A DNA stretch of 64,000 bases from a virus (taxonomy: Duplodnaviria > Caudoviricetes), in the IMG/VR virus record IMGVR_UViG_3300023213_000432, positions 32,001 to 96,000 of that record, one strand, 5' to 3'. Within the stretch, counting starts at the first letter, position 1. Each line of letters starts with the position of its first letter. A program made the position numbers and the translations under genes. The notes beneath the pieces were generated by a model that worked only from the letters and a program-made list of their open reading frames with translations, made no database searches and had not been told where the DNA came from. Shown piece after piece: positions 383-54,949 of the stretch.

Positions 383-1648
383 ATGCCTTGGCTAAATTAC
401 AATCCTAAACGACCTCCGAATCCGGGACAACTAGTTCGTCAGGTTGATAAATATGGTATTCCGGGTCCCGCAATATCTCTTAGTGGCGGTTCTTGGATGG
501 TAACTGGGGAGTCTCATCCCGAAGGAATGGATCAATTTCAAGTTCTTTGGGGATTGGAAAAACCACCTCCTGTTGGAACTAAAGTCAAGATCCATATTAT
601 TGATCCTTCTGCATCTAGCCTTAGCCATTTGAACGGTGTAGTTGGAGAAGTCACTTATAGTAGCGGAAATGAAGCTCATATTAAGTGGGAAGAAAATTCC
701 GTACCAAAAATTACGAGGGATTGGAGGTTTCCCAATCCTAATTTGGAGTTGGTGCCTCCACTTACAGAAGCCAAACCTAAGATTGGGCAAATTTGGTATA
801 ATGATGCTCTTGAATGGAAAATCAAAATTGTAGCTTCTAAACATCCCAATCTACTTGGATGCGAAACGCTTGAAAGTGGGCGATCTGGATTTGTTAAGGG
901 ACAAATTTATGATGAGTTCTGTCATAATTTTCCTATATCAACCGGTCATCGCTTAGGGATGGGGTCTGCATGGAGACTTGTTTGGGATGTCTCTGCTGCT
1001 TCTGAACCTTCAAACAGTATCTCTGAAGCTCCTCAAGGTGTAGGAATGGAACCTTCTGCTATTAAACCAGTTAAAGTTGGGCAGATCTATCGAACCAAAA
1101 CAGGTTGGACAGTCAAGATTCATTCCGTTTTTGTTGATTATGCAGACGCGGAAGTAATTCATCCTTCGAATTCTGGTTTTAAAAGTGGAACCATTATCAA
1201 GAGGGTTGGAATTTTAAATAAAGATGGAACTCCTGATGGTTGGAAAGAATGGTCATTGGTTGAAGAGAACACTATGAGCAAATTCAAAACAGGAACTCGG
1301 GTTTGGCATGCTAAATATGGAGAAGGAACCATCGCTAGTGATGAGGCAAATGGTTATTTCGATGTGTGGTTTAACGAGGGCATCTTAAATATAAATTCTG
1401 ATAAATTGCTAGTTATTCCTAAGCGCAGAGAACGCGTTACTTTCACGATTGACGACGCAGAGATTACTGGAACTTTCATTGGTGGCGAAGCAGGCGGATA
1501 TCCTATAGTCTGGGTGGATGAACCATTCAAAACTGGTGGGCACCATTCTTGGTTTCCAGATGAATATCTTTCTAATAATAGAGCTAAAATTGTTAAGCAA
1601 TTTTTGGAAAAGGAAGGATTTTCTACCGAACTTAGGCGATGCTTTTAG
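383..1648 (+). CDS. family A modular protein, repeat-array part (SH3/KOW-like modules)
   Basis: Repeated KIGQIW/KVGQIY/KFKTGTRVW modules. Collinear with 2556-4598 at protein and DNA level. Ends at TAG in frame with 1706. Confidence 0.75.
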   Translation: MPWLNYNPKRPPNPGQLVRQVDKYGIPGPAISLSGGSWMVTGESHPEGMDQFQVLWGLEKPPPVGTKVKIHIIDPSASSLSHLNGVVGEVTYSSGNEAHIKWEENSVPKITRDWRFPNPNLELVPPLTEAKPKIGQIWYNDALEWKIKIVASKHPNLLGCETLESGRSGFVKGQIYDEFCHNFPISTGHRLGMGSAWRLVWDVSAASEPSNSISEAPQGVGMEPSAIKPVKVGQIYRTKTGWTVKIHSVFVDYADAEVIHPSNSGFKSGTIIKRVGILNKDGTPDGWKEWSLVEENTMSKFKTGTRVWHAKYGEGTIASDEANGYFDVWFNEGILNINSDKLLVIPKRRERVTFTIDDAEITGTFIGGEAGGYPIVWVDEPFKTGGHHSWFPDEYLSNNRAKIVKQFLEKEGFSTELRRCF

Positions 1649-1705
1649 CTTGACGAGTACAGTATAACAAACTATCTAATAATTGAATCAGAAAGAGAGG
1701 AAACG

Positions 1706-2284
1706 ATGAAAGAAGAAACGGCAACTCAGGAAACAAAAGAAGATCAGAAGTCATTCGGAAAAATGTTCAAAGCTGACTTTACTAAAGCAGCCTGGAGAAC
1801 AGGGGCCACTCAATTAACGAATGCAGCCCAAGCTGGCATTTTAGCTATGCTAAAAGATCGTGGCGCTGATGAAAACAAATTGGCATTGGCTCGGGAACTA
1901 TTGGACACTCCGATGGGAGCAGTCCTGATTCGAGCGGTGTTGGGCTATAGTTTGACTTATATGCCCATGGTCAAAGATGATCCTCGGGGTCAGCGATTGG
2001 CGGAAGAGCTACGTGTTTCCGCGATGGATCGTGGGAGCGAAGAAGTTCTGGGAGCCGTTTTCGAATATCTCATGCCCGCTGTGCAAACTGCGGTTGCAGC
2101 TCTTCCTCCTATCGAGACAGCTATTCCCGAGGTATTAAAACCGAAGCGAAAGCGCGTTTCCGCACCCAAAGCTCGTGTATCCCCTCCCGTGGAAGTTAAA
2201 GAAGAAATCGCCACAGAGACGACAGAAGAAACGGTTACTGGAGAAAAAAAGGCAGCAGAGCTTCCGACACCTGGCGTTGTTTAG
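1706..2284 (+). CDS. family A conserved C-terminal helical domain (stand-alone or read-through part of 383-2284)
   Basis: AWRTGATQLTNA...LLDTPMG...LGYSLTYMP...QRLAEELRV matches C-termini of 2556, 38267, 47577 and 52133; SD GAGGA before ATG. Confidence 0.75.
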   Translation: MKEETATQETKEDQKSFGKMFKADFTKAAWRTGATQLTNAAQAGILAMLKDRGADENKLALARELLDTPMGAVLIRAVLGYSLTYMPMVKDDPRGQRLAEELRVSAMDRGSEEVLGAVFEYLMPAVQTAVAALPPIETAIPEVLKPKRKRVSAPKARVSPPVEVKEEIATETTEETVTGEKKAAELPTPGVV

Positions 2285-2336
2285 TTAATGGAATAATTTC
2301 TGGACTTGTCTCTCTTAAATGTTTAAATCCTACGAG

Positions 2337-2470: not shown

Positions 2471-4598
2471 GTGAATGCCGAAGTTGGCCAGGTTTGGTAT
2501 AATGAAAGTAGAGATTGGAAGGTTAGGATCACTGCTATCAAAAATAACATAGTTAGTGCCAATCCAAATTGGAACCAGCAATACATATTCTGATGGGCAT
2601 GAATATTCTTGTTTAACTAGCTTACCTTTTTATTCGAAATGGAAGATGATTAGGGAAGCTCCTAAAATGAAGGTGGGGCAAATATGGAAAAGCGACGGCT
2701 CGGCTAACTCTGAAGGTTGGACTGTTAAGGTTACTGATATTCATTTTAAAGGAGAGATAGCTATTGTTAACACCGAGACAATTGAGCCCGGTTTTAGTAG
2801 AGGCTACAAAGGAGAACAAAACTTCAATTTTGATTCCCTTAAAGAAAATGGGGAATGGAGTTTTTTAGGATGGAAGTTGGTCGAAGAGTCTAAAATGGAA
2901 GACACCAAGTATGATCGCCATCTCAAGATTGGCCAAATTTGGCAATGCGCTGATGGTTGGAAGGTTAAAATTACTGGTTACGCTGACAGTGTGTTTCAGG
3001 CTGAAACTTTAGAATCTGGCAGGTACAGCCACGCAAAAATAATTGATAATTTTCAAAGCCGTAGCTTTGAGATGACTAAAGAATGGACATTGGTTAAAGA
3101 TGTCGGAACCAAAGAGCGACCTCCTATCGGTACTATTATTGAAATAAATAATGGATCAGATAAAGGTGTTCGTGGTATTGTGATCGAACATAACAAAAGT
3201 GAATCAAAGCATGCTAAAATCAGATGGCTTTTTGCAGAAAGAAATCGAGATGCTGTTCAAGACTGGTCATTTCCTAATGAAAATGTAGATATTGTTTGTA
3301 TTCCTAAAGTCCGTGTTGGGCAATTTATTCAATATAAAAAGGGCGATATTGTCAAAATTACTGGGTTTGAGTTAAATGAGTATGAGTGGTTTATTCAAGG
3401 CGAAGTAATTAAAGGAGCTGTTTGGAATCAAGGATATTTTTCAGATCACTTTACTAAGCTAGATTCAGATGGTAACTTTTGGTATAAAGAAGATTGGAAA
3501 ATAGTAGAAGATCCATCTAAACAATCCATGCCGCCCACAACTAAATTCAAAACAGGAACTCGGGTATGGAACGATGCTTTAGGAGAAGGAATAGTTACTA
3601 ATATGGATACAGCCGAACACGCTTGTGTTCGTGTTAGATTTGATAGTTATACATACGCTGATGACAAGGATTATCATTATGTCCCACAACCTGAGTTAAT
3701 TGTTATTCCAAAGCGTGGGGATCGAATCGTTTTTACCATTGATGGAAGTGAAATCAGTGGAACATTTCTTGGTGGTGAAAAAGGCGGATATCCAATTGTT
3801 TATGTGGATAAAGAATTCGATATCAGTGCTTGTTGTTCTTGGTCGCCTAACCAATATCCGACTCTTCCAAAATTAACAATTGTTAAGAATTTCTTGGAAG
3901 AAGAAGGATATGATGTTCGAGAGAAAAGATATTTTCAATTGAATTTTCCTGAGGTGGAAGGGTTTCGAGTAATCGAGCCAGAAAATAAAGAGACGAGCCA
4001 AGTTGATAAAGAATTTTGGGATAACATCGCATTCTTTTATCGATTAAAAAACACAGAAGTAATTTCTCATCGAGGATCATTTGGACAAACCTTCAAAGGT
4101 GATTTGAAGAATGCACTATGGCGAACAGGTGCAACCCAATTGACCAATGCTGTCCAATCTAGTGTTCTTGCCATACTTCATGATCGTGGCATGAAAGAGG
4201 ACAGATTAACAGTAGTTCGGGAAATGATTGATACTCCAGTGGGAGCAGTTTTCATTCGGGCTTTGCTTGGTTATGCCATCACTTATATGCCGGTAGTGAA
4301 AGAAGATTTGTGGGCCCAGCGATTGGCGGAAGAGTTGAGAGTGTCCGCAATGGATCGTGGTGCTGAAGAAGTTATAGGAACTGTTTTCCAATATCTCATG
4401 CCCGCAGTGCAAGTAACGATTGCCGAACTGCCACCTATTGAAACGGTGGTTCCTAAGGTGGTTAAGCCAAAGAAAAAGCGGGTTGCATCTCCAAGAACCC
4501 GTGTGGATTCTTCTACGAAAGCTAAAGAAGAGGTAGTAGAAACATCAGAAAAGATAGTTGAAGAAGAAAAATTGAAATTGATGGAAGTTCCGACATAA
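2471..4598 (+). CDS. family A modular protein (repeat array + conserved C-terminal domain), apparent +1 frameshift near 2555-2565
   Basis: ORF 2556-4598 (680 aa). An upstream module MNAEVGQVWYNESRDWKVRIT starts at GTG 2471 after GGAGGA, in another frame. Confidence 0.7.
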
Positions 4599-7208: not shown

Positions 7209-7276
7209 CTTTGGGTCGAAGTTAATTCGGTTATCACTTTTGCGATTACCTCCGAATTACGCTTACTTATCCAAAG
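7209..7276 (+). ncRNA. minimal Y RNA-like hairpin (Y2)
   Basis: CTTTGGGTCGAAG...TAATTCGG TTATCA...CCGAATTA...ACTTATCCAAAG; matches bacterial Ro-binding motif GNCGAAN0-1G; T-run follows. Confidence 0.7.
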
Positions 7277-7299
7277 CTTTTTTAAAAAAGGAAAGACAT

Positions 7300-9024
7300 A
7301 TGTCATATTCATCTCATATCAGTAAAAATCCCTCCCAAACTGAAATGGCGCGCCCAGATCAAGTCCAGAACTCGGCAGGCGGATATGTTTTTCAGGTTGA
7401 TAAATGGCAACGTTTAGATCGTTTTCTCATTCTTGGGAACGAAGGCGGCACCTATTACGCTACGGAAAAACAACTTACCTTTGAGAATGTCAAGTGCATT
7501 TCAGAATGTCTCAAAGAGGATGCTTCTCGCACCATTCATCGGATCGTGGAGATTTCGTATGCGGGGCGAGCACCTAAAAATGATCCTGCCATTTTCGCTT
7601 TGGCATTGGCAGCCTCCCATCAGGATCTCAAAGTCCGACAAGAAGCGTTATCTTATCTTCCCCAAGTATGTCGAATTGGAACTCATTTGTTCCATTTTGC
7701 TAGGGACATCGATAAACTTCGAAAGTGGTCGCGAGGTTTGAGAACCGCAGTTTCCAAATGGTATCTTCGCCGTTCCCCGGAGAGCCTTGCTCTTCAAGCT
7801 ATTAAATATCAACAGCGAGATGGATGGAGCCATCGAGATTTGCTTCGTTTGGCTCGTCCTAATCCCAAGGATTGCAAGAAGCCGGTGGATACAGCTACGC
7901 ATGCCAAGTTTGTTCAGCAGTTTGGCTCTGCCTTCCGTTGGATTGTGGATAGGGATCATCTTGGAGAACGTAAAGTCGGAGGAGAATTGAAAACCAAATC
8001 TTTTCCGATTCGGGAGTATCAAGGATACCAGAAAACAGATCTTCCGGCTTTGATTCAAGCCTTTGATCAACTTCATGCTTCTAAAGATTTAAAAGAAGTT
8101 ATCACTCTCATTCGGGAATTTAAAATGCCCCACGAAGCTGTTCCTAATGAATGGAAGGATAAACCGGAAGTTTGGGAAGCTTTACTAGAAGGAATGGGAA
8201 TTACCGCCATCATTCGTAATTTGGGAAAAATGACCAATGTTGGATTGTTAAAACCCTTGGGAAGTAATACCACTCAGGTGGTGGAAAAATTGACTAATGA
8301 AAAAGTCCTGAAAGAAGGACGCGTTCATCCCATTGCTATTCTTTTCGCTCAAAAGGTGTATGCTCAGGGACATGGAGACAAAGGAAAGCTGTCTTGGACG
8401 ACTGTTAAGCCGATCGTAGATGCTTTGGATGATGCCTTTTATTTTGCTTTCAAGACGATTCGTCCTACTGGTAAAAATCATTTGTTAGCGTTGGATGTTA
8501 GTGGATCCATGGGATGTAGCTATATTGCAGGTACTAGTTTGTCAGCTATGGAAGCTTCGGCAGCTATGGCTATGATCACTATGCGAGCTGAGCCCAATTA
8601 TCATTTGGTTGGATTTTCTAGTGCTAGTGGTGGATATGGTGGTAAGTGGGGTGGCGGACAGTCCAAGATGATAGAGATTGACATTACTAAGAAGACTCGT
8701 CTTAACACAGTGATTGAAACTGTTTCTAAAATTCCGATGGGCGGAACAGATTGCGCTTTGCCTATGCTGTATGCTATGGATAATAAGTTGGACGTAGATA
8801 CTTTTGCTATATATACTGATAGCGAGACCTGGCATGGAGACATTCATCCTTACCAAGCTTTGAAGCAGTATCGAGAAAAATCAGGACGAAATGCTAAACT
8901 GGTTGTGGTAGGAATGACGGCAACGGAATTTTCCATTGCTGCGCCTGATGATAATGGAATGCTTGATGTCGTGGGCTTTGATACTGCGGCGCCTGACATC
9001 ATGGCAAATTTTTCTATGGGATGA
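7300..9024 (+). CDS. rsr: Ro60/Rsr RNA-binding protein (TROVE + vWA)
   Basis: GGYVF..RFLILGNEGGTYYA, GRAPKNDPAIFALA, KYQQRDGWSHRDLLRL, MIDAS LDVSGSM..GGTDC..YTDSETW; start ATG 7300 after AAGGAAAG. Confidence 0.97.
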   Translation: MSYSSHISKNPSQTEMARPDQVQNSAGGYVFQVDKWQRLDRFLILGNEGGTYYATEKQLTFENVKCISECLKEDASRTIHRIVEISYAGRAPKNDPAIFALALAASHQDLKVRQEALSYLPQVCRIGTHLFHFARDIDKLRKWSRGLRTAVSKWYLRRSPESLALQAIKYQQRDGWSHRDLLRLARPNPKDCKKPVDTATHAKFVQQFGSAFRWIVDRDHLGERKVGGELKTKSFPIREYQGYQKTDLPALIQAFDQLHASKDLKEVITLIREFKMPHEAVPNEWKDKPEVWEALLEGMGITAIIRNLGKMTNVGLLKPLGSNTTQVVEKLTNEKVLKEGRVHPIAILFAQKVYAQGHGDKGKLSWTTVKPIVDALDDAFYFAFKTIRPTGKNHLLALDVSGSMGCSYIAGTSLSAMEASAAMAMITMRAEPNYHLVGFSSASGGYGGKWGGGQSKMIEIDITKKTRLNTVIETVSKIPMGGTDCALPMLYAMDNKLDVDTFAIYTDSETWHGDIHPYQALKQYREKSGRNAKLVVVGMTATEFSIAAPDDNGMLDVVGFDTAAPDIMANFSMG

Positions 9025-12380: not shown

Positions 12381-13421
12381 TCATTGAACATTGCCCGATC
12401 GAGCCTTATCAGGGTTCATCTTCTCATAATTTGGGAAGATGGAGAGGCTCTCGCCAATATCTCTGTCTATTGACGACTGACCAAACATTTGTCTTTGCGC
12501 TATATTAAAGGCAGCATTAACATCTGCGTGATCTGTGTGTTCGCATTGTTGGCAAGCAAAACGCTTGCCGTCCCTTATTCCAAGAGCGCCGCATCTACTA
12601 CATTGTTGGGAAGTATAATGAGGTTCTACCTTGAAGATCGGCACTCCATAACGAAGCGCTTTATATATCAAAAAACTTTCTAATTGATAAAAGCTCCATG
12701 AATTTAACATTCCATTGAGCCTTCTACCTTTGGACTTCTGTTTTCGGATACCCTTCAAGTCTTCCAAAACTAATCCAACTTTATGTTCTACACAATATTG
12801 GATAACCACTTTAGCAATCTTATGATTGAGATCTCTCATAATGTTAGCTTCTCGTTTACTAAGTTGTTTCTTAACAAAACGATAAGCTCCTTGTTTTTGT
12901 GCTGATTTGCGAATGTTTCGATATTTGTTGCGAAGATGCGAACACTTTTTGCCTAGCTTTAGTATCTTTCCCGTGGATGGATTAGCTAACACCGCTATGT
13001 GGGAGGTAGCATTTCTATCTAAACCAACATAACCTGTTGGAGAAAAGACTATGGCTTCGCTGACTTCTACGGAAACATACGCGTATTCTTTGGATAATTC
13101 TACTTGTTTAATCTTCTTGAAGGAAGGCAAGTGGTGAATATCCAAATACAAACTCAAAGGAGTTATTTTGAGAATCTTATTTTGGAGTTTGAGGGATTGG
13201 TTGGGGACTATTAGATTAACATTTCTGATGGTGCGACACCTCTTATTTCTTCCATATTTACGAAGGATCTGATTGGATATAGCGGACTTAAGACCGATGT
13301 GAGAAACTTCTTTGGAGGAAAGCTTGTTGCGATTATGAATAGCAAACTCCGCTATTTTATGAGCTTTGACAAGTTCATCTGATAGATCGAATTGATGGCG
13401 GAGTTTGTAGGTTAGGATCAT
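12381..13421 (-). CDS. tnpB: RNA-guided endonuclease TnpB
   Basis: RuvC motifs VGLDRN, VLEDL, HADVNAAFNI; Zn finger CSRC..CQQC; TAATG coupling to tnpA. Confidence 0.92.
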   Translation of the reverse strand: MILTYKLRHQFDLSDELVKAHKIAEFAIHNRNKLSSKEVSHIGLKSAISNQILRKYGRNKRCRTIRNVNLIVPNQSLKLQNKILKITPLSLYLDIHHLPSFKKIKQVELSKEYAYVSVEVSEAIVFSPTGYVGLDRNATSHIAVLANPSTGKILKLGKKCSHLRNKYRNIRKSAQKQGAYRFVKKQLSKREANIMRDLNHKIAKVVIQYCVEHKVGLVLEDLKGIRKQKSKGRRLNGMLNSWSFYQLESFLIYKALRYGVPIFKVEPHYTSQQCSRCGALGIRDGKRFACQQCEHTDHADVNAAFNIAQRQMFGQSSIDRDIGESLSIFPNYEKMNPDKARSGNVQ

Positions 13422-13816
13422 TAGACGTTCTTTTGATTCTCTATATATTGTTTTACGGTTGCTTCTGATATACAACCTACACTTTCAGCAAAATAACTTC
13501 TTGTCCATAATGTGGGCAGCTTGCTTTTGAGATGTGGAAATTCAGTTCGTAAGATACGGCTGCTCTTGCCCTTGAGTTGCTGAACTACAAAATGTGGAGC
13601 ATGCACCGGACTACAGTGAATAAAAACATGTACATGATCTGGCATTATTTCCATTGTTTCAATGGTGCAATCAATTTCTTTAACTATTTCTGGTAAAAGT
13701 TGTCGAAGGCGTGTTTCCACCTCATCCACTAAAACTTTTCTACGATACTTTGGACACCAGATCAAATGATAGTTTATATTGAAAATTACTTTGTTGCTGT
13801 GTTTCCATCTCGACAT
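13421..13816 (-). CDS. tnpA: IS200/IS605 HUH (Y1) transposase
   Basis: YHLIWCPKYRR, MPDHVHVF, LWTRSYF, YIENQK. Confidence 0.96.
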   Translation of the reverse strand: MSRWKHSNKVIFNINYHLIWCPKYRRKVLVDEVETRLRQLLPEIVKEIDCTIETMEIMPDHVHVFIHCSPVHAPHFVVQQLKGKSSRILRTEFPHLKSKLPTLWTRSYFAESVGCISEATVKQYIENQKNV

Positions 13817-19843: not shown

Positions 19844-20509
19844 ATGAGCACTTTCAGCCTAGGCGACATTGTTCAATGGACTGATAGTCATGGAACCCAC
19901 ACTGGCACTGTAGTTGTGTTAGAATATAATAAACAGAAATGTCTTATTGGGTGGAAAAACAACTATTCTCCTTCGCACAACTTTTGGACAATTGATCATG
20001 GTTATTTTTTGAGTCAGTGCGCTAAGTTTTTAATTATTGTAGATTTTATCTCTTATATTACGGGGTATTGGGCTGATGATGGACAATTAACTTTGGTATC
20101 CAAAGCGAGACAATGGCAGCTTGGAAACAGAGTTAAAGTTGAGGGAATTGACACAGAGGGCATGGTCATTGGAATGGACGTTCGTCCTGTTTATGGCAAT
20201 GATCTTTTAGTTGGGTTTAGGACGAAGATTGAACATGGGGCGTCTTTTGTCATAGACCAAAAAACAATAAATCAACTAGATCATAATCTAAGTACTTATT
20301 GGACAGAGGGGATTGTATGTGCCTGTTGGTTTCAACTGCACCGTATTTCTTTAGTTAATGATGATAATACGATAGCACAAAAAAGTGCTGGATGTTTCTG
20401 TCGCAAGTGCCAGAATTTTTCGGGTTACGCGGAACCTAATCAAGCGGACGGTTTGTTTGTATGTTGGAGCTGTCGGACTACACCTTTTTATGGAAGTGCT
20501 GTATCGTGA
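19844..20509 (+). CDS. two SH3-like modules + C-terminal Zn ribbon
   Basis: FSLGDIVQW, WQLGNRVKV; CRKC...YAEPNQADG..CWSC. Confidence 0.6.
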   Translation: MSTFSLGDIVQWTDSHGTHTGTVVVLEYNKQKCLIGWKNNYSPSHNFWTIDHGYFLSQCAKFLIIVDFISYITGYWADDGQLTLVSKARQWQLGNRVKVEGIDTEGMVIGMDVRPVYGNDLLVGFRTKIEHGASFVIDQKTINQLDHNLSTYWTEGIVCACWFQLHRISLVNDDNTIAQKSAGCFCRKCQNFSGYAEPNQADGLFVCWSCRTTPFYGSAVS

Positions 20510-23554: not shown

Positions 23555-23820
23555 TGTTTAACTTGGAAACGGCATTAATAGAATGGTTGGAAAGCCAAGG
23601 TTTAGTGCTTGGTGGTTGGTCTAGAGAAAAATGGAACAGTATTCGAGTAGTATTTGCTAAAAAGAATAGCAATGCTTTTTTCTGTGTGAATCCGAAAGTT
23701 TCATTCAATCGGAAGGATTTTGTTAATGCCGATGCTTTGGATTATACGCTGTTTAATGAGGCAGTTTGGCTGATTGAACATCACCCTTTCTATTATTTTT
23801 TTAACGCCAGAGAAATCTAA
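23554..23820 (+). CDS. hypothetical protein
   Basis: TAATG overlap. Confidence 0.5.
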   Translation: MFNLETALIEWLESQGLVLGGWSREKWNSIRVVFAKKNSNAFFCVNPKVSFNRKDFVNADALDYTLFNEAVWLIEHHPFYYFFNAREI

Positions 23821-28262: not shown

Positions 28263-28280
28263 TTGGAAAGGAAGTGTGAA

Positions 28281-29954: not shown

Positions 29955-29995
29955 AAAATCGAAAGGTTGCATTGAGCATGATATAGTATTGTATT

Positions 29996-30898: not shown

Positions 30899-30936
30899 CC
30901 AACAAAGTACAAGCAATCAAACAATAAGAAAAATCA

Positions 30937-31110
30937 ATGAACACAAAACTCTATTACGTTTGGGGACAATATAAGGATGGTCGCACAAATGGTTGGGTAG
31001 TAGGCTCTTATTATAATGAGAGTTTAGCCAAGGCAATTGTTGAACGCTGTAACGAAATACAAGATAGAATTTACGAAGCCAGAGAAGTTATTAACAAGGA
31101 AAATCAATGA
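30937..31110 (+). CDS. family B small protein (not in ORF track, 57 aa)
   Basis: YYVWGQYKDGRTNGW...YEARE. Confidence 0.6.
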   Translation: MNTKLYYVWGQYKDGRTNGWVVGSYYNESLAKAIVERCNEIQDRIYEAREVINKENQ

Positions 31111-38217: not shown

Positions 38218-38266
38218 AGTGATCCTCAAAATCCGATGCAAGCTGCAATATGAAAGAAAAAACCTG

Positions 38267-39979
38267 ATGACCGAATATAAACTCAAACATTTTAAACCGG
38301 GAGATCGTATCCGAGTTAAAATCGGAGGAGCTAAACGTTGGGCAACCGTTGTTCATAAAGGAACAAAAGGAGATGCCGCGACTACCTTGTATCTTGATAC
38401 GCCTTATCGCGGAGTCATCGGGGAAAGTTGGAATATAAATGAAGATAAATTCCGTCTGCTCCGTTATGAGAAGATGATTGAAAAATTAGGATTAAACACC
38501 ACTAGCAACAAATTTTGGGAAGCTTATCCTAATGAAACCATAGTGATTGATGTTGGGACTCGTGCTTCTAAAATCCCTAAAATCTCCGATCTTAAAGAAG
38601 GAGATTACATCAAGATTAATCATCATGGACACGTTTCTTGGGCTACGGTTGTTGAAGGAGCTGAAGATGCCGCGGATGTTTATTTAGATACACAAATGGG
38701 GGCGCCCCACAAATCATGGCTTGGTGATTCACAACATTTAAAATTGGCTCAAAAGTTTGGATTGAATAGCGACGCTCCTAATTTTAGAAGGATACGTGAT
38801 GATGACACTAAAGTTTTAGAGGTTGGTATTCCCAAGAAACCAGTTAGTCTTCCTGAAAAGGTTTATCAACTTGGCGAGCGAGTGAAGATTAAGGTTCTGG
38901 ATGACGGTAGGCGAATTACTGATGCCACCGTTATTGATGATGGACAAAATAGTACAAGAAAAGTACCTTTGTTTTACTTGGATAAATCATATGGGTGGTC
39001 TCCCAAAAAAGCAAAAGATGAATTAGCACAAGAAGCTTGTAAGAACTTTGGATTTAATGATAAAGAAAGTAAGGCTTGGTATGGATTTGAAGGTGACTTT
39101 CGATTTATTAGAACACTTGACGAAGAAATAATTAAACCAAAAGGAGAGAAAGAAATGCGTAGGAAAAAAATAAAATACAAGGTTGGTGAACGTATTAAAG
39201 TTCAGATTACCAATGATGATGACAAAAAACATCTAACTTGGGCTACCGTTATCTCATCTAAGGGTTTGGACGACGATCCTTATATGCCATTGTTGTATTT
39301 AGATAATGAGACCGATGATAGTTGGACATGGGATGAGGATTGGCAACGTAAAGCTGCCGTAAAGCAGAAAGCTGATCCCGACGAACCCAAATTTTGGTGG
39401 TTGTGCGCTATAGATACTGAAGTTGTGCAACGAGGAGAAGGAGACAATGTTATGGAAGAAGATAATAAGGATCACAAATTCACGGAAATGGTTAAAAAAG
39501 ACATGGTGGATGCTGGCTATCGTGTAGCATCCAATCAAATGGTAAAAGGCATCAAAGCCGGAGTTTTGAAACTTTTCAAGGATAAAGGAGCCGATGATGG
39601 CAAAATTGCAGTCCTTAAAGAAGTTCTCGATAGTGATGTAGGAAGCATGGCTATTTCACTTTTACTTGGTTATGGACTTGGATACGTGCCTAAGATCGGA
39701 GATGATCCGAGAGTAAAGAAGTTGTCCAAGGAATTCAGAGTTGAAGGCTTCACATTTGGAGGTAACTTGGCTGCGGATACTATCATGCAATATCTGGCAC
39801 CGGCAGTTATGGAAGCTGTTAATGCCCTTCCACCAGTTTCGGAAGTGGTGGAGACCGTTGCCGAAAAAACAGGTCTCAAAAAGAAGACCAAGAAACGTGT
39901 TGGTACTTCTGTTCGTGTTAAGGAAGAGGAACAAGAGCACGAAGAAGAGGAAACCAATGGCAAGCGAGCCCACGCTTAA
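38267..39979 (+). CDS. family A modular protein (4 modules + conserved CTD)
   Basis: FKPGDRIRV/LKEGDYIKI/YQLGERVKI/YKVGERIKV..WATV; CTD AGYRVASNQ..LDSDVG..KEFRV. Confidence 0.8.
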   Translation: MTEYKLKHFKPGDRIRVKIGGAKRWATVVHKGTKGDAATTLYLDTPYRGVIGESWNINEDKFRLLRYEKMIEKLGLNTTSNKFWEAYPNETIVIDVGTRASKIPKISDLKEGDYIKINHHGHVSWATVVEGAEDAADVYLDTQMGAPHKSWLGDSQHLKLAQKFGLNSDAPNFRRIRDDDTKVLEVGIPKKPVSLPEKVYQLGERVKIKVLDDGRRITDATVIDDGQNSTRKVPLFYLDKSYGWSPKKAKDELAQEACKNFGFNDKESKAWYGFEGDFRFIRTLDEEIIKPKGEKEMRRKKIKYKVGERIKVQITNDDDKKHLTWATVISSKGLDDDPYMPLLYLDNETDDSWTWDEDWQRKAAVKQKADPDEPKFWWLCAIDTEVVQRGEGDNVMEEDNKDHKFTEMVKKDMVDAGYRVASNQMVKGIKAGVLKLFKDKGADDGKIAVLKEVLDSDVGSMAISLLLGYGLGYVPKIGDDPRVKKLSKEFRVEGFTFGGNLAADTIMQYLAPAVMEAVNALPPVSEVVETVAEKTGLKKKTKKRVGTSVRVKEEEQEHEEEETNGKRAHA

Positions 39980-42069: not shown

Positions 42070-42474
42070 ATGTGGATCACTACTGGTATCATTATTATAT
42101 ACTTAATGGGCATTCCAGTGACATTTATATTGGAGCCTTATCTATATTGTCCAGATCCTGAAACGAAGGACAATCTGAAAGATGTCGTCCTTTTGTCTTT
42201 GTTTTGGCCCATTTTTTTGTTGATTGTATTACCCGTTAGCACACTCATCGTTCTTCGGGAAGCTACTCGTCAAAGAGTTCTTCGCAAGAAACAAGAGAAA
42301 AACCAAAAGACATCGCAAAAGAAAGATTCGGAATCATCGGTTCCTAAACGAGAGCCAATTAACTATCGTGTTGCCCCATGCCATATTTGCGGTCATGCAG
42401 TTCAATACCTTGATGAGATAGAAAAAGAATTAACTTCAGTTGAACACTATAATCCTCTGAAAAATCATTCATGA
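42070..42474 (+). CDS. membrane protein with NYRVAPCHIC motif
   Basis: Two TM helices. Confidence 0.55.
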   Translation: MWITTGIIIIYLMGIPVTFILEPYLYCPDPETKDNLKDVVLLSLFWPIFLLIVLPVSTLIVLREATRQRVLRKKQEKNQKTSQKKDSESSVPKREPINYRVAPCHICGHAVQYLDEIEKELTSVEHYNPLKNHS

Positions 42475-43718
42475 ACCCCATTGATAAAAACTACTTTGAG
42501 GAAAAGCTGGACGTAGCTAAAAAGCATTTGAAGAAAGTGCAACAGTTCCTCACCATTAACAAGCAAGTTATTAAGCTTGGGCAAATTGCATCTAATTCTA
42601 TTGTGGAAACTGTTAAAAACAAAACGCCGGTTTCTTTAGTTTCGGGTGCTTTGGAAGCTATTTCTGCCTTAACTATTGGGGATATGTGGTATGCGCGAGA
42701 CTATTTTCCTATTGGTCAGGGATGGTATGATCTTACGGTAGATGGAGAACGTAATCTTTCCGAGTTATTTGGAACTGTTATTCGAAAGTATCCCAGCAAA
42801 TCATTGTCAATTCTAGATGGAGATCGAACCCGAGTTCCAGAATTAATCGCTTTACCAATTGGCGTAATTGGGTGCATTTCCTCAGAAAGCGATATTTCGG
42901 TCTTGTATCAGCCCGAGAAGGTTGATAGAGACAAGCTCTTGTCCTTTTTAGTTAAAGAGAAAGTTAAAGAACTCAATAGCAATTTTTTCTCTTTGTTTTC
43001 CAAAAGCACTGGATATGGATCTCGGCACTTTTCTTTAGTTCCTGAGAAACTTAATCCATTACCTTCTCGAAGAGCCCAAGAGTATGTGGAATACTTCAAG
43101 CGATACTTCGACAAAGGCATTCATCGTTCAGTTCTATTTTATGGGCCGCCGGGAACCGGAAAAAGCACTTTAGTTCAATATCTTCTCAGTGAGTTTGGGT
43201 TCCGAACTTTCAAGTTTAGATGTGAAGGATTTATGGTGCCATTCGGTATGGTTCGTTTCATCATTGAGAATTTTGATTGCGAAGCAGTGATGATGGATGA
43301 TATGGATCATATGATTGGAAATGGAAGCAACTCTGATCTTTTGGAAACTCTAGAAGTAGCTAATAGGCATTCTAAGTTTGTTATTGGATGCGCAAACGTT
43401 TTGTCAGGTTTTCATAGCGCTCTTATTAGACCAAAACGTTTTGATGAAATAATTAAAATTGATACTTTGGATGAGGAAACTATTATCGGAGTATTGGGCG
43501 ATCTTAGCCCTGACTACAAAGATAAAGTTAGACATTGGCCTATTGCTTACGTTAGTGAGTTGAAGACCAAGAGCTTAGTAGTTTCTGCTAAAGAATTGGA
43601 AGCAGCATATGTTGAACTGAATGAGAGAGTTAAAAATCAATTGGTAATGGTGGGCAAAGAAAACGAAGATGGGGATGAAAAAAAGAGTAGTCCATCACTT
43701 GCGGAATCCGAATCATGA
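42471..43718 (+). CDS. AAA+ ATPase
   Basis: Walker A GPPGTGKST, Walker B MMDDMD, SRH ALIRPKRFD. Confidence 0.88.
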   Translation: MNPIDKNYFEEKLDVAKKHLKKVQQFLTINKQVIKLGQIASNSIVETVKNKTPVSLVSGALEAISALTIGDMWYARDYFPIGQGWYDLTVDGERNLSELFGTVIRKYPSKSLSILDGDRTRVPELIALPIGVIGCISSESDISVLYQPEKVDRDKLLSFLVKEKVKELNSNFFSLFSKSTGYGSRHFSLVPEKLNPLPSRRAQEYVEYFKRYFDKGIHRSVLFYGPPGTGKSTLVQYLLSEFGFRTFKFRCEGFMVPFGMVRFIIENFDCEAVMMDDMDHMIGNGSNSDLLETLEVANRHSKFVIGCANVLSGFHSALIRPKRFDEIIKIDTLDEETIIGVLGDLSPDYKDKVRHWPIAYVSELKTKSLVVSAKELEAAYVELNERVKNQLVMVGKENEDGDEKKSSPSLAESES

Positions 43719-47576: not shown

Positions 47577-49463
47577 ATGAAGTGTGATCATTGCGGAGCC
47601 CAAAAATCCGGTGCCCTTCCCACAGGAACTAGAATTGCTTGGTGCATTCAGTGCATCAAAGAAGAACATCTTTATTTAAGATCTTTGAATCTGGAAAGTT
47701 TTAGTTCATTCGACATTGATAATAGAATCAAAACTAATTCATGGCAAGAATTTGGGCTGCCTCAAAACATTAATAAACTTGGCGCTATCCCCAAAAAGGC
47801 ATCTATGAATCAACAATATTCTATCCCAACTCAATTTACTATTGGCTCTAAAGTTAAAGTTGGAGATGTTCCTTTAGGAACGGAAGTGGAATATAGTGGA
47901 ATTAAGGGCACTATTGTTGCAAAAGGCGGAAGCTCCTCCACTATTGCTTGGAAAATTGGAGACGCCCGCACATATAACGGAGCTTATGATATCACCAAAG
48001 CCGCTTCTGGAGCCGTTTCTGGCTCTGGAGAAAAGCTTCAAACGCTTTCCCAATATTCCTTGGGATACAATGTAGCAAATAGCGATCTAATTACTGTTAT
48101 CGCCAAACCAATAAGGATAGGTGATTTTCCTTTAGGAACTAGAGTTAAATGGAGTGGTTTGATTGGGACTATTATTGGGAATTATGCAGGCAGTTCTGTG
48201 AATGGTTCCGCTGCTATTGGCTGGAAATTAGGAGAAGAGCCCTATGTAGCTGCTCAGCAGAATTTTTTAGTTTCTAAATCTTATAACTATATTCCCAATA
48301 AAGAAAACTATGTAAATCATTATTGGGTTAACAATAATACTCAAATAGAAGTTTTGGAAAGTGAGGGCTGTATGAAAATATCGGAGTTGCAAATTGGTCA
48401 AGAGATAGAATGGAATGGAGTTAAAGGAATTATTGCAGGAAATCACACTAGTTCGGGAGAAAGATTATTTGTTAGTAAAGATCCTTTTCTTGGCACCTCG
48501 AAGCATACCAAAAGTAACGACACCAAGATAACTTATACTGATAAAGTAATTGATTACTCCTACTCCATTTGGCTTACGAGTCTTACCGAAGTGATAATGA
48601 TTGGAGAGAGGATTGGAAAGTTTGGATTGAAGTTAGGTGATAAAGTTGTTGTTTTCAGACGAAAGAACGATAACAGCCTAATGGATACCGGAGCTGAAGC
48701 GGATACCTCTCGTAGTTTAATAGGAACAGTAGCAGGGTTTAATGCCTTGGGAGAAGCCAATGTGTGGTTTGATCCCGCCCAATATGGAAATATTCAAGGC
48801 AATTCTACAGCTACTGCCAAAGCTGCGGTAGATAAGTCTTATATGGATAAAGTGGATCAAAATTATAACAACTTTTGGTTGATAAGAACGGATAAAGCAT
48901 TTATTAAAATCGAAATAAAGGAGAATAAAATGAGCAACGAAAAAAATGGTCAGAGTGAAACGAAGCCGACTTTTGTCGAAATGATGCGTACCGACATGAG
49001 CAGTGCAGCATATCGTGTAGCGGCAAATCAAATGAGCAAAGGCATTAAGGGCGCTATTTTGATGGCTCTCGAAAAGAAAGGCACTGATGGTGGCAAAGTC
49101 GCGGCTATTGCGGAAATGCTTGATACTGAAGTAGGTCAAGCAGCAATCAGCATGATGATTGGATTGGCACTAACGTATCTCCCGCATGTTAGCGCGGATC
49201 CGCGGGCTCAACGATTGGCAGGTGAATTCCGAGTGGAATCGATGACTATGGTCGGGAACACATTGCTAGATACAGTGGTGGAACATTTCCTTCCAGTGAT
49301 TACGGGAGCCCTCAATGCTCTTCCTCAAGAGACACCGGCAGTTCGTGTTTCCACTCCGCCTGTGGAGGAAACGAAATCAGTAGATAAACTGGCTTTGGAA
49401 GAAGCGGCACGGGAGGAAGCGGAGAAAGCCGCGGAGCCACAAGCCAAACAACAGCAAGCATAA
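47577..49463 (+). CDS. family A modular protein (~4 modules + conserved CTD)
   Basis: PLGTEVEY/PLGTRVKW/QIGQEIEW/KLGDKVV; CTD AAYRVAANQ..LDTEVG..LTYLP..QRLAGEFRV. Confidence 0.8.
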   Translation: MKCDHCGAQKSGALPTGTRIAWCIQCIKEEHLYLRSLNLESFSSFDIDNRIKTNSWQEFGLPQNINKLGAIPKKASMNQQYSIPTQFTIGSKVKVGDVPLGTEVEYSGIKGTIVAKGGSSSTIAWKIGDARTYNGAYDITKAASGAVSGSGEKLQTLSQYSLGYNVANSDLITVIAKPIRIGDFPLGTRVKWSGLIGTIIGNYAGSSVNGSAAIGWKLGEEPYVAAQQNFLVSKSYNYIPNKENYVNHYWVNNNTQIEVLESEGCMKISELQIGQEIEWNGVKGIIAGNHTSSGERLFVSKDPFLGTSKHTKSNDTKITYTDKVIDYSYSIWLTSLTEVIMIGERIGKFGLKLGDKVVVFRRKNDNSLMDTGAEADTSRSLIGTVAGFNALGEANVWFDPAQYGNIQGNSTATAKAAVDKSYMDKVDQNYNNFWLIRTDKAFIKIEIKENKMSNEKNGQSETKPTFVEMMRTDMSSAAYRVAANQMSKGIKGAILMALEKKGTDGGKVAAIAEMLDTEVGQAAISMMIGLALTYLPHVSADPRAQRLAGEFRVESMTMVGNTLLDTVVEHFLPVITGALNALPQETPAVRVSTPPVEETKSVDKLALEEAAREEAEKAAEPQAKQQQA

Positions 49464-49787: not shown

Positions 49788-50591
49788 ATGAAGAAAATCC
49801 TGTGGTTTTCAGATACTCATTTTTCTGTTTTTCATCCTTGGACGTTTTACACGTTTCTGCGAGAGGTTGAAAAAGAAAAACCCAACGGAATTTTTCTTAC
49901 AGGAGATATTGCGGATGGGGCGCCTCAATTATATTGGGTATTAGAGAGAATGGCCAAAAGCATTCCTTCTCCTATTTACTTTGTTTTAGGAAATCACTGC
50001 TGTTGGCTATCAAGCATGGCTCGGGTTCATCAAAAGGTAAGAGAGTTATGTCAAAAACATTCTAATCTTATTTGGATGCAAGACGCTGATGTCATTCATT
50101 TATCGGATGAAATTTCAATTTTAGGAGCCGACTCATGGTATTCTTGTGATCTTGGAAACACTGACTATTTGAAATGGACGGCAGATTGGTTTTTGATTGA
50201 AGATTTTCGAAAGTTGCCCTCATGGAATGATCGGATTGAAGCGTTTCGAAATTTGGCAGAACAAGCCAAAGATATAGTGGTCAGCAAGCTACAACGTGCG
50301 CTGGAGCAAGATTATAAAACTGTTTATATTCTTACTCATATCCCGCCATGGAAAGAAGCAACTAGAGATGAAGGATCTTTTTTAGAAAAATATTGGCTTC
50401 CCTATAATATCAATCTTCGAATGGGTAAAGCTATTGAGGATATAATGCGAGAACGAAAAAAGAAAAGAGTGGTTGTGTTAACAGGACACACCCATTCTCC
50501 GTTATATGTTCGAGTATCAAGAAACGTAGAATGTCAAGTTGGAGAAGGGCACTATGTTAAAGCGTCTCATTCTCAAAAGTTATTCATGTAA
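49788..50591 (+). CDS. calcineurin-like metallophosphoesterase
   Basis: SDTH, GDIADG, GNH, THIPP, GHTH. Confidence 0.9.
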   Translation: MKKILWFSDTHFSVFHPWTFYTFLREVEKEKPNGIFLTGDIADGAPQLYWVLERMAKSIPSPIYFVLGNHCCWLSSMARVHQKVRELCQKHSNLIWMQDADVIHLSDEISILGADSWYSCDLGNTDYLKWTADWFLIEDFRKLPSWNDRIEAFRNLAEQAKDIVVSKLQRALEQDYKTVYILTHIPPWKEATRDEGSFLEKYWLPYNINLRMGKAIEDIMRERKKKRVVVLTGHTHSPLYVRVSRNVECQVGEGHYVKASHSQKLFM

Positions 50592-50602: not shown

Positions 50603-50881
50603 ATGTATTTTATGGGCGATAAGGTTAGTTATATTGGGTCCAAATTTAAAAATTTAAAGATGGGCACCATCATTTCTCGAGTGCAAAATCAGACCCAAAC
50701 GTTTGTTGTAGATTTTGGAGAAGATGCATATGTGATACATGAGAAACTTCTTACTAAATATGATCCTTCCAAATCTACTGAAAAAGTTGATACCGAAACT
50801 GTTCGCAAAAAGAAACCAAACCTTGACAATAAACAAGTGCGAGAATTTATTTCCGATGAAGACGGCACCTACGTTGATTAA
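50603..50881 (+). CDS. SH3-like hypothetical protein
   Basis: FMGDKVSY..GTII..VVDFG. Confidence 0.55.
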   Translation: MYFMGDKVSYIGSKFKNLKMGTIISRVQNQTQTFVVDFGEDAYVIHEKLLTKYDPSKSTEKVDTETVRKKKPNLDNKQVREFISDEDGTYVD

Positions 50882-51491
50882 AGGATTGTTCTGTCTGTTG
50901 CTATTGGGATGTGGTGGCTCTAGCTCTAACATTCTTGATGTTATCGATGCTGATATGGAAGAAGCAGTTGTTGATTTAGATAGTGCCATTCCACCAGACA
51001 CCACCCCTTTTAATAAATGTGTTTCTATTCGACAAGCTTTAACTGTCTATCCTAGATTACAGGAGCGAGATTGCGTCGCTTCTGATGGTACTATTTCCTT
51101 TAAGGATTACTGGGACATTAAACTCAAATTGGGATGTTATTGGAATATTGCAGGGGATGGGGTTGTTAGATGTCTTCCGGAAAGTGAAATGTCTTCTCCT
51201 TTCTATGCTGATAATATGTGTCAGAATCGGATTGCTTTAGCGGAAGTGAGCCAAGGAAAATTAGTAGAACCCTATATCGGATTAGATCGACTTGATGATG
51301 CTGGAACCTATTTAGACATGTATCTAGTAGGTGAGGTTTTTGGTGGAAGCACTATGTATCATTTAGAACAATGGGGTCAAGATTGGGGCTGTTATTCTTT
51401 TTGGATTAAGATACCGGGCACCGATCCCTATTACGTAGGTGCGAGTGTGGATCCATCAATATTTGTTCCTAAGATAGAAAGATCCTTGTGA
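50856..51491 (+). CDS. Cys-containing lipoprotein
   Basis: LLLLGCGG lipobox; C....DG...WD.KL..GC...DG..RCLP. Confidence 0.6.
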   Translation: MKTAPTLIKGLFCLLLLGCGGSSSNILDVIDADMEEAVVDLDSAIPPDTTPFNKCVSIRQALTVYPRLQERDCVASDGTISFKDYWDIKLKLGCYWNIAGDGVVRCLPESEMSSPFYADNMCQNRIALAEVSQGKLVEPYIGLDRLDDAGTYLDMYLVGEVFGGSTMYHLEQWGQDWGCYSFWIKIPGTDPYYVGASVDPSIFVPKIERSL

Positions 51492-51886: not shown

Positions 51887-52136
51887 GGGAGAGCTACTAA
51901 GTCAATTAGTAGAAGCGGAGAAAGAATTAAAAACAGCTCGGATGCGGATGGTTGAACACCGTAATAAATTATGGAAGGCAGAGGATGATTTGGTGTCTGC
52001 TAAACTTAAGGTGGATCGGTTACAGGATCAGATAAAATCTTTCCGCCGGAATAATGTTTTAATGGAAGATGAACAGCGGAATGAAGATATTGAACGATTT
52101 CGAAAAATATTGCCGGAGTTAATTAAAAAGGTTTGA
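51879..52136 (+). CDS. coiled-coil protein
   Basis: Heptad pattern. Confidence 0.5.
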   Translation: MNEGELLSQLVEAEKELKTARMRMVEHRNKLWKAEDDLVSAKLKVDRLQDQIKSFRRNNVLMEDEQRNEDIERFRKILPELIKKV

Positions 52137-54949
52137 AAATGCATTTTTGTTTTAATTGTGGCACTGAAATAATCGATAAAAAAGAATTGTTACGACAACC
52201 AAATCGTGTTGGTTTTTGCAAAGACTGTGCCCATGATGCTTGTAAAAGGACAGGAATTGCATTATTATCTAGTGTTATCGATACTTTATTGAAATATGAT
52301 GGCTTCTTTCAGGCCTCTAAAGAAGAAGCATTAATAGCCACCCCCAATGGACCCGCTCCTCCAAAGATGGTTAATCCTAATCCAGTTGAGATTGACCCTA
52401 CCAAAACCAAAGTTAAAGTGGAGGTAGGTCAAAAATGGAAAATTTTAGGCGATACCTATGAGATCGTTGCCCTTGATTTGATTAATGGGCGGTGTGATGC
52501 TATTCGAGACCATGATAAGCAGGAATATAAAGGTTTTGGACTAATTGACAAAGATGGCTATCCGGGTTGGACTGTAGTTGGATGGCGAGTAATTCCCGCT
52601 CCCAAAACAAAAATTGAAGTAGGACAAATATGGATGTCGCTTAACTCCAGACTTACGTATGAAATTACTAAAGTTATGCCAGGGCAAGCTAAAGCCGAAG
52701 CCCTACGTTCGGATGGTAGAAATGATCGGTTCATTGGAATTAAGTTAGATGGGTATCCTGAAGAAGGTTACTGGAATGGTTTTGTGTTGATTTCTAAAAA
52801 ACCTATTGGATCCAAAAATATGAATAACATTAAAGTAGAGGTTGGACAGAAATGGACTTATTTAAATCAGACATATGAAATTACCGACATTAATTTGATC
52901 GATGGATATTGTCATGCAATTGACGTTGATACCGGTAAAAAAGTATTGAATTGGGCGACAATTGACAAAAAGACTGGAAAGGCGAATTTTCCGTCAGTTG
53001 ATTTATGGGAAGTGGTTGCAGCTCCTAAATTCAAAGTAGAAGTGGGACAAGTTTGGGCACACATCGGTACTCCAAAAATTACTTACAAAATTACTACAGT
53101 TGATTCTAAAGGGCGCCATTGTAGTAGTGAGCACGGTGGGTTTGGTAGTTTGGATGTTGATGGATTTCCTTTATGGAACTTGGAGAATTGGAGGATGATC
53201 TCAAAGGATCCAAAACTAAGCAAAATCAAAGTAGCAGTGGGACAGATTTGGGAAACCCAATCTAGAAATGGAAATGAGGTTGTCATTACCTCAATCGATA
53301 AGAAAGGCAACGTTGGAGTCATTACACACAATGGTGGTGATTCTAAAGAATGCACGTTTGGGACTATTGATAATGAAGGATATGGCAACTGGTACGGTTG
53401 GCAATTAAAAACAGATGCTCCTCATGCTAGTCAAACCAAGATCAAGGTGGGACAAGTTTGGAAGCAACATTCTTACAACAAAGAATTTACCATCACCAGT
53501 ATCAAAGACGGTATTGTTATGGGAAAATTTGATGATGAAACTAAAAGTCTCTTTTGGAATCATCTTAATTCGGATGGATGTTTAACAGCTGATGTTCCTA
53601 ATTGGAGATTAGTTAAGGAAGTTATTGTTCCTAAACCTGCTGTAGGGCAAAAGTGGAAGTGGATTTCAGATATTGAACCATCTATTAAGGGGCACGTTTT
53701 CACTTTGAAAGAAATTGTCGACTGTGATTGTTATTTTGACAATTTGAGTCGCCGGATTGCTAGAATTAATAAAGATGGAACCATTTGGAAAGACAATTTA
53801 CTATATTGGGAATTGGTGGAATTGGAAGATCATAATACTTCTTCAGCTGTAAACGATTTATTACTTCTGGAAAAGTTAGAAGCCATTTATAATGGAGGAG
53901 ATTCTAGCCTTTTAGTTAAATATCCAGGTCTTTGGAACGAGATGTGCAGTCTTGGATATTTCAAGCACGGAGAATATCCTAACAATCGCAAGATTGAAGA
54001 ACGACTTACTGTTCATGGTTATGCTAGGATGATGGAGTTACGCAAGAAAATTAGAGGTGCTTCTGAAATCAAAGTAGGACAGATTTGGAAGTCACCTTCG
54101 GGCGTTGAATATCGTATTAGTAACATACCCACTACTGACAAGGATGGGACTTATTTAATAAGTATCGATTTGCTTTGTGACGGCTTTTGGAAAGGTGGGT
54201 ATTTGTGTAGCGCCCGTAATGGAGTGTTAAACGATAACGGGGAAAGCTGGGTATTGGTACAGGATGTTGTAGAACCCGCCCTCAAAATTTCTCCTGTTCA
54301 GCCGGGACAAGTATGGAAAGATAAAATTAATAATGAATGGCGAATTAAAAAAATTATAAATGATAAACGTGCCATAGCAGAAATCAAAGGATGTGATGAT
54401 CAGTGGAATGGTGACTACGATGTGGGTTTGGACGAAGGATATTTAATAGGTGATTGGATATTAATTACAAACTCTCAAGACATCCCCAAGAAGTTGAAAA
54501 AAAATCCCAAACGTCAATTCACTCTCCGAGAAACCATCAAGGAAGATATTGCCGATGCTGGATACCGTGTAGCCGCTAACCAACTTACCAAAGGAGCACA
54601 TGCAGCTATTTCAAAGTTGTTGGAAAGTCGAGGATATTCTTCCGAGAAAATTAAGATATTTATTGAGCTATTAGATACTGATTTTGGGAAATCATTGGTT
54701 GGAATGATTTTAGGAATGAGTTTAACATATACTCCCCAACTTAAAACCAATACTCATGCTCAGAAATTAGCCCGAGAGTTTCGGGTTGGTTCCATGAGCA
54801 CCATGGGAAATGCCATGGCGAATTATATTCTTCCGGCAATTATGGATTCCTTATCTGAGGATAATGTTAGAATTGCGCCCGAAGTGAGAGTGGAAGAGCA
54901 AGAAGAATTAGTATTGGAAGAAGAAGCGAATAAAGAGGCATATGTATGA
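52133..54949 (+). CDS. family A modular protein (9 modules + conserved CTD)
   Basis: Nine (K/E)V(E/A)GQ(K/I/V)W-type modules; CTD AGYRVAANQ..LLDTDFG..LTYTP..KLAREFRV. Confidence 0.85.
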   Translation: MKMHFCFNCGTEIIDKKELLRQPNRVGFCKDCAHDACKRTGIALLSSVIDTLLKYDGFFQASKEEALIATPNGPAPPKMVNPNPVEIDPTKTKVKVEVGQKWKILGDTYEIVALDLINGRCDAIRDHDKQEYKGFGLIDKDGYPGWTVVGWRVIPAPKTKIEVGQIWMSLNSRLTYEITKVMPGQAKAEALRSDGRNDRFIGIKLDGYPEEGYWNGFVLISKKPIGSKNMNNIKVEVGQKWTYLNQTYEITDINLIDGYCHAIDVDTGKKVLNWATIDKKTGKANFPSVDLWEVVAAPKFKVEVGQVWAHIGTPKITYKITTVDSKGRHCSSEHGGFGSLDVDGFPLWNLENWRMISKDPKLSKIKVAVGQIWETQSRNGNEVVITSIDKKGNVGVITHNGGDSKECTFGTIDNEGYGNWYGWQLKTDAPHASQTKIKVGQVWKQHSYNKEFTITSIKDGIVMGKFDDETKSLFWNHLNSDGCLTADVPNWRLVKEVIVPKPAVGQKWKWISDIEPSIKGHVFTLKEIVDCDCYFDNLSRRIARINKDGTIWKDNLLYWELVELEDHNTSSAVNDLLLLEKLEAIYNGGDSSLLVKYPGLWNEMCSLGYFKHGEYPNNRKIEERLTVHGYARMMELRKKIRGASEIKVGQIWKSPSGVEYRISNIPTTDKDGTYLISIDLLCDGFWKGGYLCSARNGVLNDNGESWVLVQDVVEPALKISPVQPGQVWKDKINNEWRIKKIINDKRAIAEIKGCDDQWNGDYDVGLDEGYLIGDWILITNSQDIPKKLKKNPKRQFTLRETIKEDIADAGYRVAANQLTKGAHAAISKLLESRGYSSEKIKIFIELLDTDFGKSLVGMILGMSLTYTPQLKTNTHAQKLAREFRVGSMSTMGNAMANYILPAIMDSLSEDNVRIAPEVRVEEQEELVLEEEANKEAYV

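Follow-up and report, generated by a model that had tools for sequence, protein, structure and literature searches.

Seven proteins encoded by one uncultivated phage share a constant C-terminal domain (CTD) that stands behind arrays of small-barrel modules. We analyzed 64,000 nucleotides of the IMG/VR virus record IMGVR_UViG_3300023213_000432 (the window), corresponding to bases 32001-96000 of a 198,652-bp record with a CheckV completeness of 46%; the source is a huge phage. As shown by profile searches, the CTD defines a real and large protein family that has no name yet and has so far been found only in uncultivated huge phages (>300 kb). We propose, with a probability of roughly one in three, that the CTD and the tail that follows it may attach the arrays to a single phage assembly common to all of them, with the head as the likeliest candidate.

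When the CTD profile was searched against the six-frame translation of the entire record, seven copies were detected at E-values from 1e-46 to 1e-81. The first-pass annotation, made from the letters of the window alone, had described a five-member family. These five, here called paralogs B to F, do share a homologous helical CTD, with 31-59% identity and 18 invariant columns in their alignment; two further members, A and G, lie upstream and downstream of the window. The genes are listed below, where G000 coordinates are positions in the 198.6-kb virus record and all others are positions in the window.

G000 29864-31051: paralog A, just upstream of the window, found with the CTD profile
383..1648, + strand: paralog B, array part, 421 amino acids (aa), its type-2 module truncated by TAG at 1646-1648
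1649..2284, + strand: paralog B, in-frame continuation past the TAG, with the end of the type-2 module, CTD (~1745-2263) and tail
2471..2593, + strand: remnant of a type-1 module ahead of paralog C and out of frame with it, with a frameshift between ~2556 and 2593
2553..4598, + strand: paralog C, with type-1 modules, other barrels, one type-2 module, CTD (~4071-4589) and tail
38219..39979, + strand: paralog D, likely start ATG 38267, with four type-2 modules, CTD (~39470-39976) and a tail ending in KRAHA
47577..49463, + strand: paralog E, with an N-terminal CxxC...CxxC zinc ribbon, CTD (~48963-49460) and a tail ending in KQQQA
52133..54949, + strand: paralog F, ATG 52139, with an N-terminal zinc ribbon, CTD (~54515-54946) and a tail ending in KEAYV
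G000 115738-118326: paralog G, downstream of the window, found with the CTD profile, with three type-2 modules

The N-termini of the paralogs differ from one another. Paralog B starts with a domain common with A, followed by a 'PPVGTKV' barrel, two type-1 (VGQxW) modules, a 'KTGTRVW' barrel and the cut type-2 module. The frame of paralog C is open from 2553, with a GTG at 2556, and a 650-aa database form of the protein fits the ATG at 2646. The array of paralog E combines three PLGTxV-type modules with one type-2 module, while paralog F carries nine type-1 modules and a short, acidic tail.

The consensus given earlier for the CTD, A[YW]R..A.Q, LDT..G, G..LTY.P and LA.EFRV followed by a charged tail, was reproduced by our alignments; its length, given as about 110 aa, was an underestimate. 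An AlphaFold2 (AF2) model built from a 92-sequence alignment revealed a folded domain of about 130 aa with five helices (residues 99-139, 144-155, 157-171, 181-220 and 224-235), at predicted local distance difference test (pLDDT) values of 90-97, in which a short hairpin is flanked by two 40-residue helices. A complex prediction with two CTD copies gave no verdict on self-association (score 0.24, mark 0.42). Among 150 sequences the near-invariant columns are K, D, A, Y, R, Q, G, L, (D/E)(T/S)E, two invariant Gly, L.Y.P, D.R, L..EFR, G....GN, P and LP. Many polar CTD residues (K12, D14, Y20, R21, Q26, E59, D82, R84, E91, R93 and N102) are near-invariant, as would fit a specific conserved partner. 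The tail that follows was disordered in both AF2 models, from the deeper and the shallower alignment (pLDDT <50), and runs from K-x-R-V through a poly-Glu run to a terminal [KR]-x-[AM]-x-[AVG]-COOH. Of 155 proteins, 40 have last five residues that fit this pattern, whereas the composition of the tail predicts 0.3%. Paralogs D, E and F fit it; the damaged copies B and C do not. Conservation among the paralogs was not found for a K-x-A site at the junction of array and CTD.

The search of 1.84 billion cluster representatives returned 1,216 matches at E<=1e-3, 202 of them at E<=1e-30. Within the 155 proteins examined, which range from 144 to 3,226 aa, the CTD was C-terminal in every case, at a median of one residue from the end, and approximately 18 of 150 listed proteins consist of a stand-alone CTD. 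The architecture of a constant CTD behind variable arrays, first noticed in the window, is real and extends to more than 1,200 clusters. Relatives in IMG/VR lie on contigs of 324-473 kb, each with one to six CTD copies; one of these contigs has terminal repeats. A gp23-type capsid gene was detected in one relative phage, and three others gave no match to that model. Nearly all that is known of huge phages (>300 kb) comes from metagenomes, and a role has yet to be assigned to most of their genes.

The CTD had not been recognised at first reading, and it found no match in any library we tried. Sequence matches were absent from Pfam, PHROGs, NCBIfam and PDB sequences, and tblastn with three different CTDs against 50,697 deposited phage records returned nothing. 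The domain, which marks more than 1,200 clusters, is missing from these resources and from the deposited phage genomes searched, and naming it would consequently annotate a sizeable block of huge-phage dark matter. Two CTD models were searched by fold in PDB (with Foldseek and VIA-align) as well as in AFDB clusters, ESM Atlas and BFVD, and nothing rose above the helical background. Two candidates were rejected. Recurrent weak matches to RNase III-domain folds had TM-scores of 0.17-0.28, a root-mean-square deviation (rmsd) of 11-15 A and a different motif spacing; for BFVD matches to T5-like phage proteins, the CTD profile was blank against Pectobacterium phage My1 even at E<=10.

Many of the weak fold matches were membrane proteins, and the most hydrophobic CTD helix is transmembrane-like, its match to bacteriorhodopsin helix B being at chance level. 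The CTD could accordingly be read as a peripheral membrane anchor, in which the G.A.IS..LG.GLTY.P helix dips into the inner membrane and tethers cytoplasmic arrays, for instance at an assembly or exclusion site. This helix is only 15 residues long, though, and is packed within a confidently predicted helical bundle, between helices that carry conserved charges. For the most hydrophobic 19-residue stretch of each sequence, the median hydropathy is 1.34; 20 of 150 sequences reach 1.6 and none reaches 2.0. From these sequence properties a true membrane anchor appears unlikely.

At least two families of modules, unrelated to each other in sequence, occur in the arrays. Type 1 (VGQxW...W.L, ~65 aa) is present in B, C and F, and type 2 (GDRV..ATV..YLD..SW..LG..FW, ~85 aa) in A, B, C and E, as well as several times over in D and G. 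An hhalign comparison of the two gave a probability of 0.5%, meaning no relation, and no relation was found between type 2 and the E-type modules either; BLAST revealed additional pieces common to A, B and C. Across the family, type 2 occurs in 35 of 155 proteins (96 modules, up to 10 per protein) and directly precedes the CTD in 24 of these 35, while type 1 occurs in 10 of 155. Modules do vary in number and type, as had been observed at first, with roughly 3-9 per protein and several types.

The label 'SH3/KOW-like', given to the modules in the first-pass annotation, held in part. Only the type-2 module was modelled, with pLDDT values of 88-95, as a small barrel to which one helix and two strands are added. 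VIA-align related it to small barrels (Z 4.6-5.6, rmsd 2.7-3.4 A over 55-70 residues), the matches being CAP-Gly, Spindlin, Tip60, PWWP, SGF29, TDRD3 and BirA, with Foldseek E-values above 0.1. Because of this resemblance to CAP-Gly, Tudor, chromo, PWWP and BirA-SH3 domains, the label is a reasonable, if weakly supported, description of type 2 at the level of fold. At the level of sequence, SH3_2, KOW and ProQ_C matches stayed below threshold, and no Pfam model reached its cut-off.

The same annotation had placed similar modules in four open reading frames (ORFs) without a CTD, and this was not supported. ORFs 19844, 20461/20506, 31932 and 50603 gave no phmmer match to any member, ORF 19844 reached an hhalign probability of 11% against the type-2 profile over one strand, and the four share no more than a generic first-strand pattern. 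In the 198-kb record, the type-1 and type-2 hidden Markov models matched CTD-bearing genes only. ORF 19844-20509 has a feature of its own: its Cys-rich C-terminal 46 aa recur at G000 152460-152810 (phmmer E 3e-9) as a small, zinc-finger-like piece unrelated to the CTD family.

The CTD might be a self-assembling or nucleic-acid-organising unit, with hairpins that oligomerise and arrays of Tudor/chromo/KOW-like, AbrB/MazE, CusF/OB and zinc-ribbon types that bind DNA or RNA, so that the proteins form a scaffold for the genome or transcripts. The two 40-residue helices do form a hairpin, E and F start with four-Cys zinc ribbons, relatives match nucleic-acid-binding small barrels in Pfam (MazE/AbrB, SMUBP-2 1B, ProQ_C), and one source labels a member as an AbrB/MazE-fold DNA-binding protein. 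Yet the arrays are near neutral and not basic (pI 5.4-8.5, net charge -14 to +4), and all of the Pfam matches are sporadic. Overall, we regard this explanation as doubtful.

In a phylogenetic tree of the CTDs, A, B and C are closest to one another, which suggests that they arose by tandem expansion at this locus. For D, E, F and G the closest relatives are in each case copies of other phages, not of the same genome, and the branches of the seven are spread over the entire tree. D, F and G match their nearest neighbours in module type but not in module number; for type 2, D has 4 modules and its neighbours have 1, 5, 9 and 10. The nearest neighbours of E share its single type-2 module. Furthermore, the gene order D-like, AAA, E-like, F-like and RNA ligase is kept on a 412-kb JGI contig and a 32-kb Logan contig. 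The synteny of D, E and F in related phages indicates that these copies are retained and not redundant. As judged from sequence comparison, the paralogs look old and vertically retained, with arrays that gain and lose repeats and with no cassette shuffling.

These relationships bear on the polymorphic effector system suggested for the window at first, taken here in the sense of MuF/Rhs-type proteins, in which a constant domain would deliver a rapidly swapped effector head. A constant domain, highly variable partners and many paralogs per genome are what such a system would present. A Pfam scan of 59 diverse members, however, detected no enzyme or toxin domain, only sporadic small barrels (CusF, MazE, DUF6745, SMUBP-2 1B, Cul7 and ProQ_C). 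Array type follows the phylogeny of the CTD, subfamilies D, E and F keep their gene order between phages, and no immunity-like pattern of small genes was seen, which makes this suggestion very improbable.

Two of the seven copies are damaged, one by a TAG and one by a frameshift. The loci 383 and 1706 constitute a single gene split inside a module by the in-frame TAG, which aligns with a Gln of paralog C; similarity resumes after it. At loci 2471 and 2556, the first VGQxW module has been displaced to another frame. An alternative genetic code was considered as a general feature and discarded, as TAG terminates 42 of 328 long ORFs. Same-frame ORF pairs with one intervening stop comprise 2 TAG, 7 TAA and 5 TGA, with no TAG enrichment. 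TAG is an ordinary stop in this genome, on the evidence of these counts. The ATG at 1706 is preceded by GAGG and could yield a stand-alone CTD protein of 192 aa, a form common in the family.

We favor a docking function for the CTD and tail. They would act as a device that attaches every family protein to the same phage-encoded assembly, with the head as the likeliest candidate, either as internal proteins loaded into the prohead or as proteins bound on the capsid lattice. The folded helices would hold the protein in place, while the flexible acidic tail and terminal peptide would form a tethered recognition motif. The barrel arrays would supply non-enzymatic binding or spacer surfaces, and would lengthen or shorten as repeats are gained or lost. 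The flexible tail with its end peptide, the conserved polar surface and the strict C-terminal position suggest a docking unit that has a single conserved partner. The homology of the seven copies, the lack of enzyme domains in 59 diverse members, the several copies in large relatives and the retained synteny of D, E and F also speak for this reading. That the CTD is a common address had been proposed in the first-pass annotation; this still seems the best reading, and it gains a conserved extreme C-terminal peptide behind a disordered tail. In the HK97 protease and in encapsulin cargo, the C-terminal targeting signal consists of a flexible linker and then a short conserved end-peptide, and the same layout was found in the CTD family. 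The heads of giant phages hold paralog families with copy numbers that vary between phages, as well as long targeting propeptides (PMC5694885). Docking to the head is ranked first because of these two analogies, with the C-terminal peptides of HK97-fold shells and with the head paralogs and propeptides of giant phages.

Several observations weigh against the head as the docking site. The fold of the CTD has no known match above the noise level of helical proteins. In the gp23-type relative, the CTD copy lies approximately 125 kb from the capsid and terminase genes. The motif ATGATCTCGCAT, which has been attributed to the head region, has no exact copy in the 198-kb record, hence none upstream of the CTD genes. 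The known phage targeting signals of the T4 type are N-terminal and short. With two of seven copies damaged, not every copy is essential. Finally, the neighbourhood of the CTD genes consists of small accessory-type genes (Ro60, RNA ligase, VapE and homing nucleases, with rIIA near) with no head module, and the region looks accessory-like, not structural.

Gene order in the window and in related phages draws attention to a different type of partner:

42471..43718, + strand: AAA ATPase (PF00004), between paralogs D and E; a candidate partner only

It is possible, though with considerable doubt, that a phage AAA+ machine, either this ATPase or a ClpB/ClpC-like unfoldase, uses the CTD and tail as a handle on the family proteins and recognises the terminal peptide and acidic tail. 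The proteins would then serve as its substrates or adaptors, to be remodelled, unfolded or degraded at set times. The terminal K-x-A-x-A with its final Ala recalls the C-terminal tags recognised by ClpX, and the tag of the phage's own transfer-messenger RNA (tmRNA) ends in LAA. A homolog of the AAA ATPase (31% identity, E 9e-32; L020 3962-5470) abuts the sole CTD gene of the gp23-type huge phage; two related contigs (L023, L024, L025) preserve the order D - AAA - E - F. Moreover, a ClpB/C-like gene adjoins three tandem CTD copies in a complete 428-kb genome and lies upstream on the 412-kb contig. Against this, the AAA homolog is absent (E<=1e-5) from two of the five large genomes with the CTD family, and the ClpB-like gene from two or three of the five. 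Synteny among close relatives is no independent evidence for such a handle, and a conserved folded domain of 130 aa far exceeds what a degron needs. If the CTD did serve an AAA machine, it would point to a new phage-run protein-remodelling circuit.

The ClpB/ClpC-like unfoldase genes are full-length, with Clp_N, two AAA domains and D2-small, at L017 6850-9246 and L024 1491-4064. The tmRNA is phage-encoded at L009 3279-3637 (G000 23279-23637), and its tag peptide is ANDNNAFVQMPLAA.

The docking reading can be extended. The CTD, tail and peptide may together be a new widespread C-terminal loading signal that places sets of SH3-like arrays in or on giant capsids, possibly by way of a dedicated AAA ATPase; we put this forward as a tentative possibility. 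If correct, it could serve as a general tag for loading foreign proteins into huge-phage heads. A signal for head loading or docking would explain how very large capsids recruit accessory proteins, and would offer a handle for cargo loading.

The window is composed of small, closely packed genes, mostly on the + strand, with a GC content of ~39%. Recognisable genes are Ro60/TROVE-vWA, TnpB, LAGLIDADG and HNH nucleases, an S8 subtilase, RRXRR, VapE, the AAA ATPase and RNA ligase; outside the window, the same record encodes rIIA, a helicase, tRNAs and the tmRNA. The Ro60/TROVE plus vWA gene lies at 7240-9024 (E 1e-47 to 1e-65), and an Rfam scan of the window detected no family at gathering score anywhere, Y RNA included. 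A TnpB-like gene with a Cas12f1-like TNB domain (E 2e-23) is located at 12381-13475 (-), on the minority strand, and a LAGLIDADG/NUMOD1 homing-endonuclease gene (27213-28262, -) stands back-to-back, with zero gap, with the S8 subtilase gene (28263-29954, +). Between paralogs E and F, ORF 49788-50591 contains a calcineurin-like phosphoesterase motif (DTHF...GDIADG...GNHC), and ORF 50739-51491, just upstream of F, has a lipoprotein-like start (LLLLGCGG). In other parts of the record, nine tRNA calls were obtained, for one of which the anticodon was called, oddly, with four bases.

A comparison with known systems places this CTD family beside several others. The inner-head proteins of phiKZ and SPN3US (PF12699; PMC5694885) likewise occur as several paralogs per genome with one common domain and variable copy number, and their common part has been proposed to direct the proteins into the head (PMC5694885). 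Their propeptides, in contrast, are N-terminal and cleaved, whereas the shared part here is C-terminal, and PF12699 matched no protein of the window (E<=1) and none of 59 relatives (E<=0.001). phiKZ and SPN3US are chimalliviruses with virion proteomics, while the CTD family, by the tblastn searches of deposited phage records, counts no cultured phage. The tails of encapsulin cargo and of the HK97 protease are similar in presenting a disordered linker and a short conserved C-terminal peptide on otherwise unrelated proteins; the peptide [KR]-x-[AM]-x-[AVG] differs from the encapsulin motifs, and is preceded here by a folded domain of 130 aa that is lacking there. Decoration proteins of the T4 Hoc type also string small beta modules on a C-terminal anchor, in numbers that vary between phages, but the Hoc modules are Ig-like, their anchor is of a kind other than a helical bundle plus acidic tail, and no sequence or fold match was found. 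The capsid targeting sequence (CTS) of T4-type phages is an N-terminal propeptide of 10-20 aa that head proteins of otherwise different kinds have in common, as opposed to a C-terminal part of ~130 aa plus tail. As for the arrays, the modelled type-2 module resembles SH3-like small barrels (Tudor, chromo, PWWP, CAP-Gly, KOW and the BirA C-domain), from which it differs in its size of ~85 aa and in its extra helix and two strands. The CTD defines a new domain family with a familiar architectural logic.

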